From the NCBI RefSeq assembly GCF_046105845.1, contig NZ_CP151004.1: a stretch of 64,000 nucleotides of DNA; one strand, given 5' to 3'. The stretch comes from Escherichia coli. Its GTDB lineage: Bacteria > Pseudomonadota > Gammaproteobacteria > Enterobacterales > Enterobacteriaceae. Made by a program: the position numbers and the translations under genes. The notes beneath the pieces were generated by a model. The model ran no database searches. It was not told the origin of the DNA and saw only the letters and a program-made list of their open reading frames with translations. This document shows, one piece after another, positions 154 through 8,015 of this stretch; within the stretch, counting starts at the first letter, position 1, and every line of letters starts with the position of its first letter.

Positions 154-2334
154 ATGACAACTAAAAATATGAATACGCCACCAGGCAGCACTCAGGAAAA
201 TGAGATCGATCTGCTTCGTCTGGTCGGCGAGTTATGGGATCACCGTAAGTTTATTATCAGCGTGACCGCGTTGTTCACGCTGATCGCTGTCGCTTACTCG
301 CTGTTAAGCACGCCAATTTATCAGGCAGATACTCTGGTCCAGGTTGAGCAGAAACAGGGCAACGCCATTCTCAGCGGCCTGAGCGATATGATCCCTAACT
401 CATCGCCCGAGTCAGCACCGGAGATCCAACTGCTGCAATCGCGCATGATTCTCGGTAAAACCATTGCTGAACTGAATCTGCGCGACATAGTTGAGCAAAA
501 GTATTTTCCGATTGTGGGTCGCGGCTGGGCGAGATTAACCAAAGAGAAACCAGGTGAGCTGGCGATCAGCTGGATGCACATCCCACAACTGAATGGTCAG
601 GATCAGCAACTGACACTCACGGTTGGGGAAAACGGCCACTATACGCTGGAAGGTGAAGAGTTCACCGTCAATGGTATGGTCGGTCAGCGTCTGGAAAAAG
701 ATGGCGTTGCGCTGACTATCGCGGACATTAAGGCCAAACCAGGAACACAGTTTGTCCTGAGCCAGCGTACCGAACTGGAAGCGATTAACGCGTTGCAGGA
801 AACCTTTACCGTTAGCGAACGCAGTAAAGAAAGCGGGATGCTGGAACTTACCATGACCGGTGATGATCCCCAGTTGATTACCCGTATTCTGAACAGCATC
901 GCTAACAACTATTTGCAACAGAATATCGCTCGCCAGGCGGCGCAGGATTCACAAAGCCTTGAATTCTTACAGCGCCAGTTGCCTGAAGTGCGCAGCGAGC
1001 TGGACCAGGCGGAAGAAAAACTCAATGTTTATCGCCAGCAGCGCGATTCGGTTGACCTTAACCTGGAAGCCAAAGCCGTTCTTGAGCAGATTGTGAACGT
1101 TGATAATCAACTCAATGAGCTGACTTTCCGCGAGGCAGAGATCTCCCAGCTGTATAAGAAAGATCACCCAACTTATCGTGCGCTGCTGGAAAAACGCCAG
1201 ACGCTGGAGCAAGAACGCAAACGCCTGAATAAGCGGGTATCGGCAATGCCTTCCACCCAACAGGAAGTGTTGCGTTTAAGTCGTGACGTAGAAGCGGGCC
1301 GTGCGGTATATCTGCAATTACTTAACCGCCAGCAGGAGTTGAGTATTTCGAAATCCAGTGCGATTGGTAACGTGCGGATTATCGACCCGGCAGTCACTCA
1401 GCCGCAGCCAGTGAAACCGAAAAAAGCGTTGAATGTGGTGCTTGGTTTTATTCTTGGCCTGTTTATTTCGGTGGGTGCCGTGCTGGCGCGTGCGATGTTG
1501 CGTCGTGGTGTAGAAGCCCCGGAACAACTGGAAGAGCACGGCATCAGCGTTTATGCCACTATCCCGATGTCCGAGTGGCTGGATAAACGTACCCGTCTGC
1601 GTAAGAAAAATTTATTTTCTAATCAGCAGCGCCATCGTACTAAAAATATCCCCTTCCTGGCGGTGGATAACCCGGCGGATTCTGCTGTGGAAGCCGTACG
1701 TGCGCTACGAACCAGTCTGCACTTCGCTATGATGGAGACAGAGAATAACATTCTGATGATCACCGGTGCGACGCCAGACAGTGGTAAAACGTTCGTCAGT
1801 TCAACTCTGGCAGCGGTGATCGCCCAGTCCGATCAAAAAGTGTTATTTATTGATGCCGACTTACGCCGTGGTTATTCGCATAACCTGTTTACCGTGAGTA
1901 ATGAACATGGCTTGTCGGAATATCTGGCAGGTAAAGATGAGCTCAACAAAGTGATCCAGCATTTTGGCAAAGGAGGCTTTGATGTGATTACTCGCGGTCA
2001 GGTGCCACCTAACCCGTCTGAACTGCTGATGCGCGATCGGATGCGTCAATTACTGGAATGGGCGAACGACCATTACGATCTGGTGATTGTCGATACGCCG
2101 CCGATGCTGGCGGTGAGCGATGCTGCGGTCGTAGGGCGCTCTGTCGGCACCAGCCTGCTGGTTGCGCGTTTTGGCTTGAACACCGCCAAAGAGGTGAGCT
2201 TGTCAATGCAGCGTCTGGAACAGGCTGGCGTCAATATTAAAGGCGCAATCCTCAATGGTGTGATTAAACGCGCCAGCACCGCTTACAGTTACGGCTATAA
2301 CTATTACGGTTATAGTTACTCCGACAAAGAGTAA
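154..2334 (+). CDS. etk: Tyrosine-protein kinase Etk (Wzc-family BY-kinase, cryptic group 4 capsule locus)
   Basis: 726-aa ORF; Walker A GATPDSGKT; C-terminal tyrosine cluster YSYGYNYYGYSYS; recognised as E. coli Etk, same length as K-12. Confidence 0.95.
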   Translation: MTTKNMNTPPGSTQENEIDLLRLVGELWDHRKFIISVTALFTLIAVAYSLLSTPIYQADTLVQVEQKQGNAILSGLSDMIPNSSPESAPEIQLLQSRMILGKTIAELNLRDIVEQKYFPIVGRGWARLTKEKPGELAISWMHIPQLNGQDQQLTLTVGENGHYTLEGEEFTVNGMVGQRLEKDGVALTIADIKAKPGTQFVLSQRTELEAINALQETFTVSERSKESGMLELTMTGDDPQLITRILNSIANNYLQQNIARQAAQDSQSLEFLQRQLPEVRSELDQAEEKLNVYRQQRDSVDLNLEAKAVLEQIVNVDNQLNELTFREAEISQLYKKDHPTYRALLEKRQTLEQERKRLNKRVSAMPSTQQEVLRLSRDVEAGRAVYLQLLNRQQELSISKSSAIGNVRIIDPAVTQPQPVKPKKALNVVLGFILGLFISVGAVLARAMLRRGVEAPEQLEEHGISVYATIPMSEWLDKRTRLRKKNLFSNQQRHRTKNIPFLAVDNPADSAVEAVRALRTSLHFAMMETENNILMITGATPDSGKTFVSSTLAAVIAQSDQKVLFIDADLRRGYSHNLFTVSNEHGLSEYLAGKDELNKVIQHFGKGGFDVITRGQVPPNPSELLMRDRMRQLLEWANDHYDLVIVDTPPMLAVSDAAVVGRSVGTSLLVARFGLNTAKEVSLSMQRLEQAGVNIKGAILNGVIKRASTAYSYGYNYYGYSYSDKE

Positions 2335-2350
2335 AACTGAAGGTAAAGTG

Positions 2351-2384
2351 ACCGGATGCGGCGTGAACGCCTTTTCCGGCCTAC
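2351..2384. repeat. REP (repetitive extragenic palindromic) element
   Basis: ACCGGATGCGGCGTGAACGCCTTTTCCGGCCTAC matches the E. coli REP consensus GCCGGATGCGGCGTGAACGCCTTATCCGGCCTAC; lies between convergent etk and appA. Confidence 0.7.
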
Positions 2385-2417
2385 GCATCAGACAGTTCTT
2401 CGTTTGTCATCAGCTTC

Positions 2418-2449
2418 AGAGCATTCAGGTAACTGAATGCTCTTTTTTA
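2418..2449 (+). terminator. Rho-independent terminator downstream of etk
   Basis: Inverted repeat AGAGCATTCAG-gtaa-CTGAATGCTCT followed by TTTTTT. Confidence 0.65.
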
Positions 2450-2453
2450 TGCA

Positions 2454-3752
2454 TTACAAACTGCACGCCGGTATGCGTGCTTCATTCACGATTTGCGTAA
2501 AACTGGCCAACGAACACATGCCCTGCGCATTTCGCTCTTCACATCCTGCCAGGGTCAGTTTCACCTCTCCGGGCGGCGTATTTAATGATAGCGGCGTTTT
2601 ATCACGCATCTGCTGTAAAGTCTGGAAGACCAGCGAAACCTGAATCCAATGGCTGTTATCGCTTAGCCTACGCCAGCGTTCAAACACCAGTTCACCCCCT
2701 GGCGGTGTGTTATCCGGCTGACCTGGAAGCGTCCAGTTGAGCTCCAGTGCGCCGCCGAGATTTGCCAGATTAGTATCGTGTCCGGCGATAAACAGCACTG
2801 AAGTGGGTAATGTCACACCATACGCCTGTTTTTGCGGTGGATGGGGCGTCAACGCTGTCATGATCAAATCCAACAACGGGGTGGCGCGGCTGCGGGCAAC
2901 CTCTGGCGTGCGTTGTAGTAAATAAAATTGCGCGTTATGCAAACTTAGCAACGTGTTCCACTGGTGTGAATCAGTGATCCTTCCCCACCCCGGCTCCGGC
3001 ATTCCCTGTGCTTGTTGCAGGAGAAATATTTCCGTCAGCATTGATGCGAGGCTTACCGCACCGGTTAATGAGACATTGTCGGCGCTCACCTTGAGTTCCG
3101 ATGGTAATGCCTGCGTTAATGAACAGCTTTCGTCCTGTTTCTCACGGTTAAGGCACAAGTTTGATTGTGGAAAATTAAGCACCTGTTCCAGTTCGCGAAA
3201 CGCCGTTTGTCGATGCCCGGTAAAGTCAGCAATTGACCCTCCTGCCCTGCTGAGGATCGCGTCAGTCACATTCGCGTTATCCAGTTGGCAAACGCCAGTT
3301 TTTAGAGGATTAAATAACGGATCGGGACTGGACGTATCTGCCTGGGTATGTATGGTTATTGCACAGTCAGGTGCCAGCCCGGCGGCGAAGGCTTCGCCTG
3401 TTTTACGGGTACGCTCGTCGACATCAGCAATAATCGCGACCTGACCAGGCTGCGGGCAGCCCTTTTTCGCCAGCAATCCGTCAGCCACCAGACGCTGGCG
3501 TTGGTAATGTCCGAGATAAGCGATTAGCTCACCACCGCGCGGTGTCAGCCACCCCAGTTTTACCGGCCATGTTGGCCATGCGTCTGAGGTGACATCCTGC
3601 ATCAGTTGCGTGGCCTTGGTTGGGGCACGCACACCATGACGACTGACAATCACCACACTTTCCAGCTTCAGCTCCGGCTCACTCTGAGCGAATGCAGATT
3701 GCGGGGTGAACGGAATCAGAAGAGATAAGAATGGGATCAAGATCGCTTTCAT
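2454..3752 (-). CDS. appA: Periplasmic pH 2.5 acid phosphatase / phytase AppA
   Basis: ORF trimmed to MKAILIPFLSLLIPLTPQSAFA signal peptide (432 aa); histidine acid phosphatase motif RHGVRAP; recognised as AppA. Confidence 0.95.
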   Translation of the reverse strand: MKAILIPFLSLLIPFTPQSAFAQSEPELKLESVVIVSRHGVRAPTKATQLMQDVTSDAWPTWPVKLGWLTPRGGELIAYLGHYQRQRLVADGLLAKKGCPQPGQVAIIADVDERTRKTGEAFAAGLAPDCAITIHTQADTSSPDPLFNPLKTGVCQLDNANVTDAILSRAGGSIADFTGHRQTAFRELEQVLNFPQSNLCLNREKQDESCSLTQALPSELKVSADNVSLTGAVSLASMLTEIFLLQQAQGMPEPGWGRITDSHQWNTLLSLHNAQFYLLQRTPEVARSRATPLLDLIMTALTPHPPQKQAYGVTLPTSVLFIAGHDTNLANLGGALELNWTLPGQPDNTPPGGELVFERWRRLSDNSHWIQVSLVFQTLQQMRDKTPLSLNTPPGEVKLTLAGCEERNAQGMCSLASFTQIVNEARIPACSL

Positions 3753-3831
3753 CGATATGTTTCCGCTTTTCATATCCGACATTATTGATTGCCTGATGCG
3801 ACGCTAATGCGCCGCATCAGGCTTACGTTCG

Positions 3832-3924
3832 TTAACTTTTCAGACGCGGGTCCAGCCATACCAACACAAGGGTGGAGAGCGAACACATCAACAAAATGCC
3901 GACGAACCAAAGTAAATACCACAT
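3832..3924 (-). CDS. appX: Small membrane protein AppX (cytochrome bd-II accessory subunit, CydX paralogue)
   Basis: 30-codon ORF MWYLLWFVGILLMCSLSTLVLVWLDPRLKS read from the minus strand between appB and appA; absent from ORF track because below its size cut-off. Confidence 0.8.
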   Translation of the reverse strand: MWYLLWFVGILLMCSLSTLVLVWLDPRLKS

Positions 3925-3936
3925 TGTTCCTGCTCC

Positions 3937-5073
3937 TTAGTACAACTCGTTTTCGTTACGGCGGAGAGTTTCTGTTGTCATGCGCCCCCACATTTTGTAG
4001 TAGCTCCAGAGAGTGTAGAGCAACACAATGGGCAAAAATATCAGCACGATTACCAACATAATGCTCAGCGTCAGCTGACTGGAAGTACTGTCCCACAACG
4101 TCAGGCTGGAGATCGGACTCACGCTTGACGGCATGACAAAGGGGAACAGCGTGATGCCTGCCGTGAAAATCACGCCAAATTGCATCAATGACGCCATCAA
4201 AAATCCCCAACCCGGGCGACCACGATAAATCGCCATCACCGTCAGCAATGGGCAGAAGAACCCCAGCAGCGGGAAGATCCACAAAACGGGCGACTCGACA
4301 AAATTATTCATCCAGGCACCAGGTAGCACTGCCACCAGTTTCATTAACGGATTGGAAGGACCGTTAGCATCCTGGGCGAGCAGTACAAAGCCATCAATAC
4401 CGACCCACAGCCAGTAACCCGCCAGCAAAAAGCAGAGCATCACCAGCAGTGCGGCGCGTTTGGTCGCCAGCTGTGAACGCAGATGAATCGCACCAACAGT
4501 TTTTAGTTGTAACCAGACGCCACCTTGCAAAATCACCATCCCAAGGCTGAGCAATCCGCACAATAAAGGGAATGGCGTCAGCAGTTGCCAAAAGCTGCCG
4601 AGATACTCCACGCGTAATTGCGGTGTAAAGGCAAACGGCACGCCGAGCAACAAGTTGCCGAAGGCGATACCGAAGACTACCGGCGGCACCAGACTGCCGA
4701 TGACCAGACCGGCATCCCACATTTTACGCCAGCGTGCATCGGCAATTTTTCCGCGATAATCAAAGGCCAGCGGGCGAAAGAACAGCGAGCACAGCACCAG
4801 GATCATCGCCACATAAAAGCCGGAAAACGCCGCTGCATACACTCTGGGCCAGGCGGCAAATAATGCCCCACCTGCGAGGATCAACCAGACCTGATTGCCT
4901 TCCCAGTGCGCACCAACACTATTAATCACTATCCGGCGTTCATCATCATCACGCGCCACCAGCGGCAGCAAACAGCCAATCCCCATGTCAAATCCGTCGG
5001 AGATCATAAAGACCACCAGGATCACGCCAATCAGCAGCCACCAGATGAAGCGCAATGTTTCATAATCAAACAT
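3937..5073 (-). CDS. appB: Cytochrome bd-II ubiquinol oxidase subunit II
   Basis: 378-aa polytopic membrane protein; recognised as AppB/CbdB; 11 nt downstream of appC. Confidence 0.95.
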
Positions 5074-5084
5074 GATTTTCTCCT

Positions 5085-6629
5085 TTACCCCTGTTGCTGC
5101 GTCGGTTGTTCACTCTGCATCGCGCTCGGCCCCAGACGGGCATATTTCTGCATCAGGTAGACTTCGGCGATTAAGAACAGGGTGTAAAGCCCTACGATCA
5201 TGATCAGTGAGAAAGCCAGTTGTCCTGTGGTTAAGGCGGAGTGCGCGGAGTATGTCGGTAAGATGTCCTGTATCGCCCACGGCTGACGACCAAACTCGGT
5301 CATAAACCACCCGGCTTCAATCGCAATCCACGGCAGCGGCAAACTCCAGAGCGCCATTTTCAGCACCCAGCGATGCTGGTCGATTTTGCCACGCAGCGTC
5401 TGGACAAGCGCAATAAGCATCACCAGTAGCAGCAGAGAACCACAGCCCACCATGATGCGGAAACTCCAGAATACCGGCGCAACCTGAGGTATCGCACCAC
5501 GCATCGCCGCCTGGTACTGTGCAGCTGTGACATGGTTCATATCCGGCGCATAGCGGGAGAGCAACATGCCGTAACCAAGGTCGCCTTCCAGCTCCCGGAA
5601 TGCCTGCAACACATGCGGCTCTCGATTGCCTTGCGATATTTCCTGCATTAACAGCCAGGCCATACGTCCGCGTTGCAAGCGTGGGTAGGTTTCAGCCATC
5701 AAATTCTTCAGACCCGGCACGGGTTTATCTAATGAGTGAGTGGCGAGGATCCCTAGCAGCGCGGGAATTTTGATGGCAAAGGCGTTACGCTCTTGATCCT
5801 GTTCCGGCCAGGCAACCACATGGAACGGTGCAGGTGCAGGTTCCGTTTGCCACTCCCCTTCCATCGCCGCCAGTTTTACCGGTTGTACTTGCGCGACTTC
5901 ATACGCCGAACTGTCTCCGAGTTGCAGCGTACCGATAATCGCCAGAGTACCGAAGACGGAACCGATGGCAAACGAGCGTAATGCAACATCGCGCTCCCGT
6001 CCGCGCAGTAAATACCAGGCGCTGATCGCCATAATAAACATGGCCCCGGTCACGTAGCCCGCCATTACGGTGTGTACAAATTTCACCTGGCTGACCGGGT
6101 TAAAGACCAGCTCGCTGAAGCTGGTCATTTCCATGCGCAGGGTGTCGATATCAAAATGCGCACCGGTCGGGTATTGCATCCAACCGTTGGCATTCAATAT
6201 CCACAACGCAGAGAGATTTGAACCGAACGCCACCAGCCACGTCACCAGCAGGTGCTGGTATTTATTCAGCCGCTGCCAGCCGAAGAAGAACAGCCCGACA
6301 AAGGTGGATTCGAGGAAGAAGGCCATTAATGCTTCCATCGCCAGCGGTGCGCCAAAAATATCGCCCACATAGTTGGAATAGAATGACCAGTTAGTACCAA
6401 ACTGAAACTCCATGGTCAGGCCGGTAGCCACGCCAAGAGCAAAGTTGATACCGAAGAGCTTACCCCAGAAGCGCGTCATATCGCGGTAGATTGTTTTGCC
6501 GGTGACCACGTAAATGGTTTCCATGATAGCCAGCAAAAAAATCAGCCCCAGGGTAAGGGGTACAAATAAAAAGTGATACAGCGCGGTCAGAGCAAACTGC
6601 CAGCGCGATAAATCAATGACATCCCACAT
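5085..6629 (-). CDS. appC: Cytochrome bd-II ubiquinol oxidase subunit I
   Basis: ORF trimmed to [12 protein letters not shown] (514 aa); CydA-family; recognised as AppC/CbdA. Confidence 0.93.
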
Positions 6630-6762
6630 GCGCACTCCTGTAGGCGAAGAGAGAAAAATAACCCGTTAATGGTAGATCTCCCTCTTTATCCTGAAACTCT
6701 ACGACCAGAGGTATTCGCCGATTGCGATATTCATAAGCCTGAAAGCGATACTTACCGTCTTT

Positions 6763-7620
6763 TTACGTCGGTGCACCTTCCGCCAGCCACTGGCATACCT
6801 CGCTAAGCCGCTGCGCAGAGTCGACCAAATCTTCTGGCGCTGCCAGCACCACTTCCGGTATTGGGCAGATTTCATAACTTTCCATTAACGGGCCTTTTAA
6901 GGTGTCCGTACAGCGTAAATGCCAGACATGGCGTAACCCCGTGGCGTTGATATAGCTCTCGCCATAGCCAATGGTACGAATCTGAATATTTCCCGGCCCA
7001 CAGAGACGTGAGAGAAAAAGCCGGTCAGCTTCGCTGATGGGCAATTGCGTCAGATTAATGCTGTGCGGCTGCGCGTCGGGGTTACGTACATGTGCCAGTA
7101 ATTCATGGGCCAACGGTAGGCCATTCATCAGGCCATCAATGGGCGGCGGTAACAGCGAATCTGTCGGCAAGACGTTTTGCGTTGCCGCCTGCCACAATGC
7201 CAGCGGCGCGCAGCCAGCCTCCAGTTTGTCTTCCAGCAACTGTTCGCCGTGACGTCTGCGTACCCGCCATAATCCGCAGAAGATCGCCTCCTGAATTTCA
7301 CTTTCACTACCATCAGCCTGCTGAATGCGCACTGACACTTCCCCTTCCCCGAGAAGCGTATTGATAAAGTGACGATCGTCGGCGTTGAGATTTAACAGAT
7401 CGACTGCCAGTACCTCGCCCAGCGGCGGCTGGCGCTCGCTTAGTTGATGTTGTAACTCGTTTAATAGCGCAATCACCTGCGGGCTGTGAGCACATTGCTC
7501 CAGGGCCGCCATACTCGGTTCATCATTCACCTGACAGGTGATCGGCAGTGGATTCATGCTGAAACTGTCATCGTTCGGTTGCGTTCCTGGCCCCAGCAGA
7601 TGGAAAAAAGTTTCGCTCAT
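6763..7620 (-). CDS. hyaF: Hydrogenase-1 operon protein HyaF (HupH/HypC-like maturation factor)
   Basis: ORF trimmed to [12 protein letters not shown] (285 aa); start overlaps hyaE stop by 4 nt. Confidence 0.9.
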
Positions 7621-8015
7621 GAGGCACGCTCCTGCTGCGGTTCGACAAGCCCGCGCATCAGGTTTATCAGTTCCGCCCACGGGTGAATACCATTCAGCAC
7701 GCCGCGATAGTTTCCGCCGGTAAATACTAATGTGGCGGGAAAGCGAAAGACGCCAAAGCGATCGCCGATGGCTTCGCTTTGCTCAAGGTCAGCAATCGCC
7801 ACCTGCCATGTGTAGTCGGGAAACTCGCGCAGTAATTCGCCAATCATTACCGGATTATCGCTGACCTCTGGCGTGCGTTTCGGGTCACTGCTTAATAACA
7901 CCACGCCGTCTGGCGCTTGCGTAAGCCAGTCGTCAAGACGGGATTCACTGACCGGCGTCCAGCCACGCGCCAGCATTCGTTGCCACAACGCATCAAATGG
8001 CGTGTCGTTGTTCAT
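7617..8015 (-). CDS. hyaE: Hydrogenase-1 operon protein HyaE (Tat-signal chaperone)
   Basis: 132-aa ORF; 4-nt overlap with hyaD and hyaF. Confidence 0.93.

Follow-up and report, generated by a model that had tools for sequence, protein, structure and literature searches.

The short minus-strand reading frame between appB and appA (3832-3924) is appX, also called cbdX, the gene for the small subunit of cytochrome bd-II; its product is a paralogue of CydX and not CydX itself, and it is almost certainly the 30-residue third subunit of the bd-II quinol oxidase AppC-AppB-AppX. The gene is already known, being annotated in E. coli, described by a curated family model of its own and represented in two cryo-EM structures. 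As a discovery, its recovery from the window (the whole stretch of 64,000 nucleotides analysed here) thus carries little weight, AppX having been both annotated and structurally characterised as a structural subunit of bd-II. The case does illustrate that ORF tracks with a length threshold hide real small-protein genes, and that a reading of the sequence alone recovered appX correctly, from its position after appB together with a CydX-like N-terminus. The usual thresholds for listing ORFs (a default of 60 aa, for example) exceed the 30 aa of appX, and it is because the frame falls below such ordinary limits that the gene was missing from the ORF track. A mechanical list of all ORFs of at least 20 aa does include it (3832..3924, minus strand, 30 aa, ATG), as one of 130 such ORFs in 9 kb.

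The frame comprises an ATG start, 30 codons and a TAA stop, running ATG TGG TAT ... AAA AGT TAA on the minus strand. Its translation, MWYLLWFVGILLMCSLSTLVLVWLDPRLKS, matches exactly the one claimed in the preliminary description, and residues 2-24 make up an unbroken hydrophobic stretch. Between the stop codon of appB (TAA, 3939-3937) and the ATG lies a 12-nt spacer (3936-3925); the distance had been given earlier as 13 nt after the appB stop, which is correct when the count runs up to and includes the A of the ATG. It had also been proposed that a Shine-Dalgarno sequence be looked for upstream of 3924, and one is present, UAAGGAG at 3939-3933 (Table 1). Its placement before the ATG is the canonical Shine-Dalgarno arrangement, and UAAGGAG is also the sequence given for appX in an earlier study (PMC9841429, its Table 1).

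Table 1. Features of the appC-appB-appX-appA region, with positions in the window and the evidence for each.
Feature	Position	Strand	Evidence
appX (cbdX, formerly yccB), CDS	3832..3924	-	ORF and translation; NF011333; PF08173; RefSeq cbdX; PDB identity
Shine-Dalgarno UAAGGAG for appX	3933..3939	-	Overlaps appB TAA stop (3939-3937); 8 nt from last G to ATG
REP-like palindrome, 14-nt arms, 4-nt loop	3791..3822		Inverted repeat GCCTGATGCGACGC / GCGCCGCATCAGGC; sub-threshold match to Rfam naRNA4
appB, cytochrome bd-II subunit II, 378 aa	3937..5073	-	NF011602, 830.1 bits vs 681; PF02322; RefSeq appB
appC, cytochrome bd-II subunit I, 514 aa	5085..6629	-	NF011609, 1201.5 bits vs 1025; RefSeq appC mapped from NZ_CP026723.1
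appA, acid phosphatase/phytase, last gene of the cluster	2454..3752	-	NF007552, 839.2 bits vs 585; RefSeq start maps to 3752

The identity of the product is carried by family models and by solved structures. Against the NCBIfam equivalog NF011333 (CbdX) AppX scored 80.8 bits, the curated cut-off being 57 (E=4.2e-23), with an alignment over 1-30 of 30, and residues 1-25 scored 45.4 bits against the Pfam family PF08173 (YbgT_YccB; gathering cut-off 26.2), whereas the equivalog of the bd-I subunit CydX (TIGR02106) gave 18.9 bits, below its curated cut-off of 31.6. Over its full length (30/30) the protein is identical to chain C of 7OSE and chain X of 7OY2, both named ‘cytochrome bd-II ubiquinol oxidase subunit AppX’; it is thus the same protein as the AppX of E. 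coli K-12, whose gene occupies the same position between appB and appA. In both structures this sequence was resolved as one transmembrane helix (PMC8585947), in agreement with the single transmembrane segment ascribed to the product in the preliminary description; the scores and the identity likewise bear out the name AppX and the role, a CydX-like accessory subunit of bd-II, that were proposed there. RefSeq places ‘cbdX: cytochrome bd-II oxidase subunit CbdX’ at the equivalent coordinates in E. coli, again between appB and appA. A query of 601 bases spanning the ORF found matches in 5418/5426 complete E. coli genomes and none in the other 8, and a stretch of 221 bases (the end of appB, appX itself and some of the spacer towards appA) was 1-5% divergent from most E. 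coli genomes.

Within one E. coli genome, NZ_CP193497.1, the match was limited to the appB part of the query (58% of it) and occurred in two places, a pattern suggestive of an interrupted appB-appX junction in the strain concerned.

The gene lies directly downstream of the subunit II gene in an operon of the bd-II type (appCB) and not of the bd-I type (cydAB). Both large subunits pass the bd-II equivalogs (Table 1) and fail those of bd-I, with AppC scoring 796.2 against a cut-off of 968 and AppB 500.4 against one of 718. The mechanical appC ORF is longer by two codons at its upstream end, where it starts with a GTG at 6635, and the NF011609 alignment begins at ORF residue 3; the open frame of appA continues upstream as well, to an ATG at 3782. 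On the minus strand the gene order is appC-appB-appX-appA, appC is preceded by the hydrogenase-1 genes hyaD and hyaE of the hya group, and appA faces a convergent tyrosine kinase gene, surroundings which fit the hya-app chromosomal region of E. coli. The app genes are induced in stationary phase, by phosphate starvation or under anaerobiosis.

An open frame of only 30 codons might have arisen by chance in a non-coding appB-appA spacer and give no protein at all, short ORFs being as abundant as the count above indicates. The conservation of the frame bears directly on this point. One genome per bacterial species was searched with a degenerate DNA pattern for M-W-Y-L-L-W-F-x-G; as the pattern fixes codons 1-9, those codons are no evidence, and the sample is one of close homologues (14 species representatives). 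The scan yielded 14 loci in five genera, from six Escherichia, four Citrobacter, Salmonella enterica subsp. arizonae, three Edwardsiella and Candidatus Schmidhempelia bombi, a bee-gut symbiont of the Orbaceae. The small ORF was intact, with 29-34 codons, in 13/13 loci that hold its full length, the 14th being truncated where the locus ends. Most of the 14 also carry a GGAG-type core that adjoins or overlaps the appB stop and is spaced about 8 nt from the ATG. Over codons 10-29, with Schmidhempelia left aside, the alignment columns that vary numbered 9/20 at the first, 2/20 at the second and 16/21 at the third codon position, and synonymous codon differences from the appX of the window outnumbered the non-synonymous ones in 11/12 comparisons with Enterobacterales loci (10 vs 3 in Citrobacter sp. 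On2M and 7 vs 2 in Edwardsiella, for example). This substitution pattern is characteristic of a frame that is translated and under purifying selection. The preliminary description had made its proposal depend on the reading frame being conserved among related bacteria, and the frame is indeed kept across the Enterobacterales in every complete locus. A chance frame is rejected on the family scores, the identity to a solved chain and the conservation across genera, and its probability is close to nil: AppX exceeds the curated cut-offs in two family libraries, its sequence is that of a chain which two solved structures contain and mass spectrometry has detected (PMC8585947), and the frame is kept in five genera with substitutions of the coding type and a conserved Shine-Dalgarno sequence.

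The same loci show with which genes appX is associated. An appB homologue ended 12-26 nt upstream of the small ORF in 14/14 loci, and appC preceded this homologue wherever the locus DNA reached that far. An appA homologue followed appX in Escherichia only, among the 14 loci; none was found after appX in the Citrobacter, Salmonella arizonae and Edwardsiella loci, three of which (L006, L011 and L015) have little downstream DNA. Since appB always adjoins the small ORF and appA does so only in Escherichia, it is the oxidase genes that the small ORF accompanies, rather than the gene for the phytase, and the distribution suggests that the cluster acquired appA in the Escherichia lineage.

Across these loci the C-terminal tail of AppX, comprising the last five codons, was the variable part and the transmembrane core was nearly invariant. 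The tail reads DPRLKS in the window and in K-12, D/EPRLKG in other Escherichia, EPRLK in Edwardsiella and ESRQK or ESRQQ in Citrobacter and Salmonella, with an overall length of 29 or 30 aa across these variants. The homologue in Candidatus Schmidhempelia bombi (L004, 2396-2500) has 34 aa, MWYLLWFVGVLLACSLAVLTGLWIDKKSDDKPSQ, and its gene follows a subunit II gene whose product is 53% identical to AppB.

By virtue of its 30/30 identity to a chain that has been both resolved and detected by mass spectrometry, the AppX of the window is predicted to be a physical subunit of the AppC-AppB complex. The cryo-EM study of E. coli bd-II describes the enzyme as an AppC-AppB-AppX heterotrimer, in which AppX, detected at about 4 kDa with its identity established by mass spectrometry, is a single helix of 30 residues that lies within the membrane and contacts TM1, TM5 and TM6 of AppC (PMC8585947), a description with which a review agrees (PMC8951039). 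Leucine contacts between two AppX chains form the main interface of the bd-II dimer in amphipol preparations, although whether the dimer exists in the membrane was left open by the authors (PMC8585947). According to the same study, bd-II serves respiration at low oxygen and is important for colonisation of the gut by Enterobacteriaceae (PMC8585947). Translation of the gene, the lack of any signal for which would have told against it according to the preliminary description, is documented by TIS-profiling, in which coverage of ‘the known small protein AppX’ has been published (PMC11188072).

AppX and its paralogue CydX have several features in common and differ in others. CydX (YbgT; 6RKO chain X; TIGR02106), the small subunit of E. 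coli bd-I, also belongs to PF08173, also consists of a single transmembrane helix and is also encoded after the subunit II gene. The two proteins have in common an N-terminal MWYxxW...G.LL.CS motif, the MWYLLW of AppX aligning with the MWYFAW of 6RKO_X, as well as the same binding site on subunit I; they can be aligned over 24 residues and their positions in the structures overlap completely (PMC8585947). These likenesses, namely the common motif, the 24 aligned residues and the overlapping positions, lend some substance to the idea that AppX is mainly a spare CydX which services cytochrome bd-I, and not a dedicated subunit of bd-II. Over-expressed AppX, moreover, is said to have partly complemented a cydX mutant in work by VanOrsdel et al. 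from 2013, which we counted in favour of the same idea. We nevertheless consider it very unlikely. Mutagenesis of CydX, in a study that treats AppX as a paralogue, saw no phenotype of cydX point mutants unmasked by deletion of appX (PMC6005532); purification of AppCB brings AppX with it, and the structures of that complex resolve it; the gene is linked to an appB homologue in 14/14 loci; and NCBIfam splits CbdX from CydX, with the 80.8 vs 18.9 bits reported above. CydX, at 37 aa, is 7 residues longer than AppX and has a charged C-terminal tail, and Phe, Ala or Ile stands in CydX at several positions where AppX has Leu; these residue changes, it has been suggested, may prevent bd-I from dimerising (PMC8585947). 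A further parallel is offered by CydS of the Geobacillus thermodenitrificans cytochrome bd, which like AppX is a single-helix accessory subunit alongside CydA and has been treated as functionally equivalent to the small subunits, but which, compared with CydX and AppX, sits at a tilt of 4-5 A and lacks the contact with TM4 (PMC8951039). No sequence match between CydS of this organism and AppX was found in our analysis.

With AppX regarded as the dedicated third subunit of bd-II, the following course of expression and assembly may be proposed. In this strain appX would share a transcript with appC and appB; its translation would begin at an AUG of its own, served by the UAAGGAG that overlaps the appB stop codon, and this overlap might also couple its translation to that of appB. 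The product would then enter the inner membrane as one transmembrane helix and pack on TM1, TM5 and TM6 of AppC, where it would stabilise the helix bundle with hemes b595 and d; it may further bridge two bd-II heterotrimers, as it does in one cryo-EM preparation. The small subunits of proteobacteria are described as crucial to assembly, stability and activity (PMC8951039), and, on the strength of this statement and by analogy with CydX, bd-II probably needs AppX for all three. The preliminary description had spoken of co-translation in an appCBXA operon. The gene order and the Shine-Dalgarno sequence at the appB stop uphold the operon part of this claim; the wording is better changed to co-transcription with possible translational coupling, both being deduced for this strain. 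No promoter-like site was found in 3600-4100, and the sole terminator-like hairpin is a weak one with a 5-bp stem inside appB (4065-4078), a single match being no more than was obtained from shuffles. The lack of a promoter-like site between appB and appA, together with a weak hairpin only, is compatible with co-transcription but is no proof of it.

The start of appX deserves separate consideration. The gene begins ATGTGG, and a 46-codon ORF with a GTG start (3782-3922, minus strand) begins 2 nt into the ATG, so that initiation at the GUG (3922) of the AUGUG could give a 46-codon product in the +2 frame, either as the real product of the locus or as a second functional one. Some AUGUG sites do initiate in both frames, and appX is among the AUGUG genes (PMC9841429); the same study, however, predicts no start-site ambiguity for appX. 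The +2 frame, moreover, is 13, 23, 31, 36, 74, 81, 133 or 490 codons long among the related loci, without a common end (23 codons in Salmonella, Edwardsiella and most Citrobacter), and in the window passes through the REP-like palindrome; its product (VVFTLVRRHFVDVF...) is not membrane-like and has no family match. We thus rejected the GTG ORF as a gene, its frame length being unconserved and no ambiguity being predicted (PMC9841429), and regard its product as having practically no chance of being a functional one. In the Escherichia loci the +2 frame is open for 31 codons or more. A narrower proposal, restricted to Escherichia, would be that the AUGUG of appX also initiates at the overlapping GUG and so yields a further peptide, out of frame and about 31-46 aa long, whose coding stretch crosses the palindrome, and this we hold to be extremely improbable.

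The palindrome itself is near-perfect and lies within the 79-nt appX-appA spacer, outside appX. It scored 28.7 and 24.3 bits against Rfam naRNA4, below the gathering score of 59.5. We take it to be a REP (repetitive extragenic palindrome), on the basis of the REP consensus, and naRNA4 is a REP-derived RNA. Situated between the oxidase genes and appA, the element could act as a stabiliser of the mRNA or as a partial terminator. A permissive Rfam scan of 2300-7000 returned only sub-threshold naRNA4 matches (24-32 bits vs 59.5) and none on appX; a structured RNA instead of, or besides, the appX ORF was thus rejected.

The scan also gave a second naRNA4-like match at 2308-2381 (32.1 bits, E=0.005, sub-threshold), in the gap that separates the convergent tyrosine kinase gene (154-2334, plus strand) from the end of appA (2454, minus strand). 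This is probably another REP-type element, and the 14-mer of the 3791-3822 palindrome did not recur there within 2 mismatches.

Further observations concern the flanks of the cluster. Upstream of appC, an ORF of 305 codons (6763-7680, minus strand) in the position of hyaF had no NCBIfam match at E<=1e-5, and RefSeq places hyaF (‘hydrogenase expression/formation protein’) at this position in NZ_CP026723.1, the E. coli genome with the best match to the appX region. Downstream of appA, the tyrosine kinase gene of the window encodes 726 aa and scores 1594.6 bits against NF007350. In NZ_CP026723.1 it is instead cspH that follows directly after a slightly longer appA, which it overlaps; with a kinase gene in the one and cspH in the other, strains therefore differ in what lies downstream of appA.
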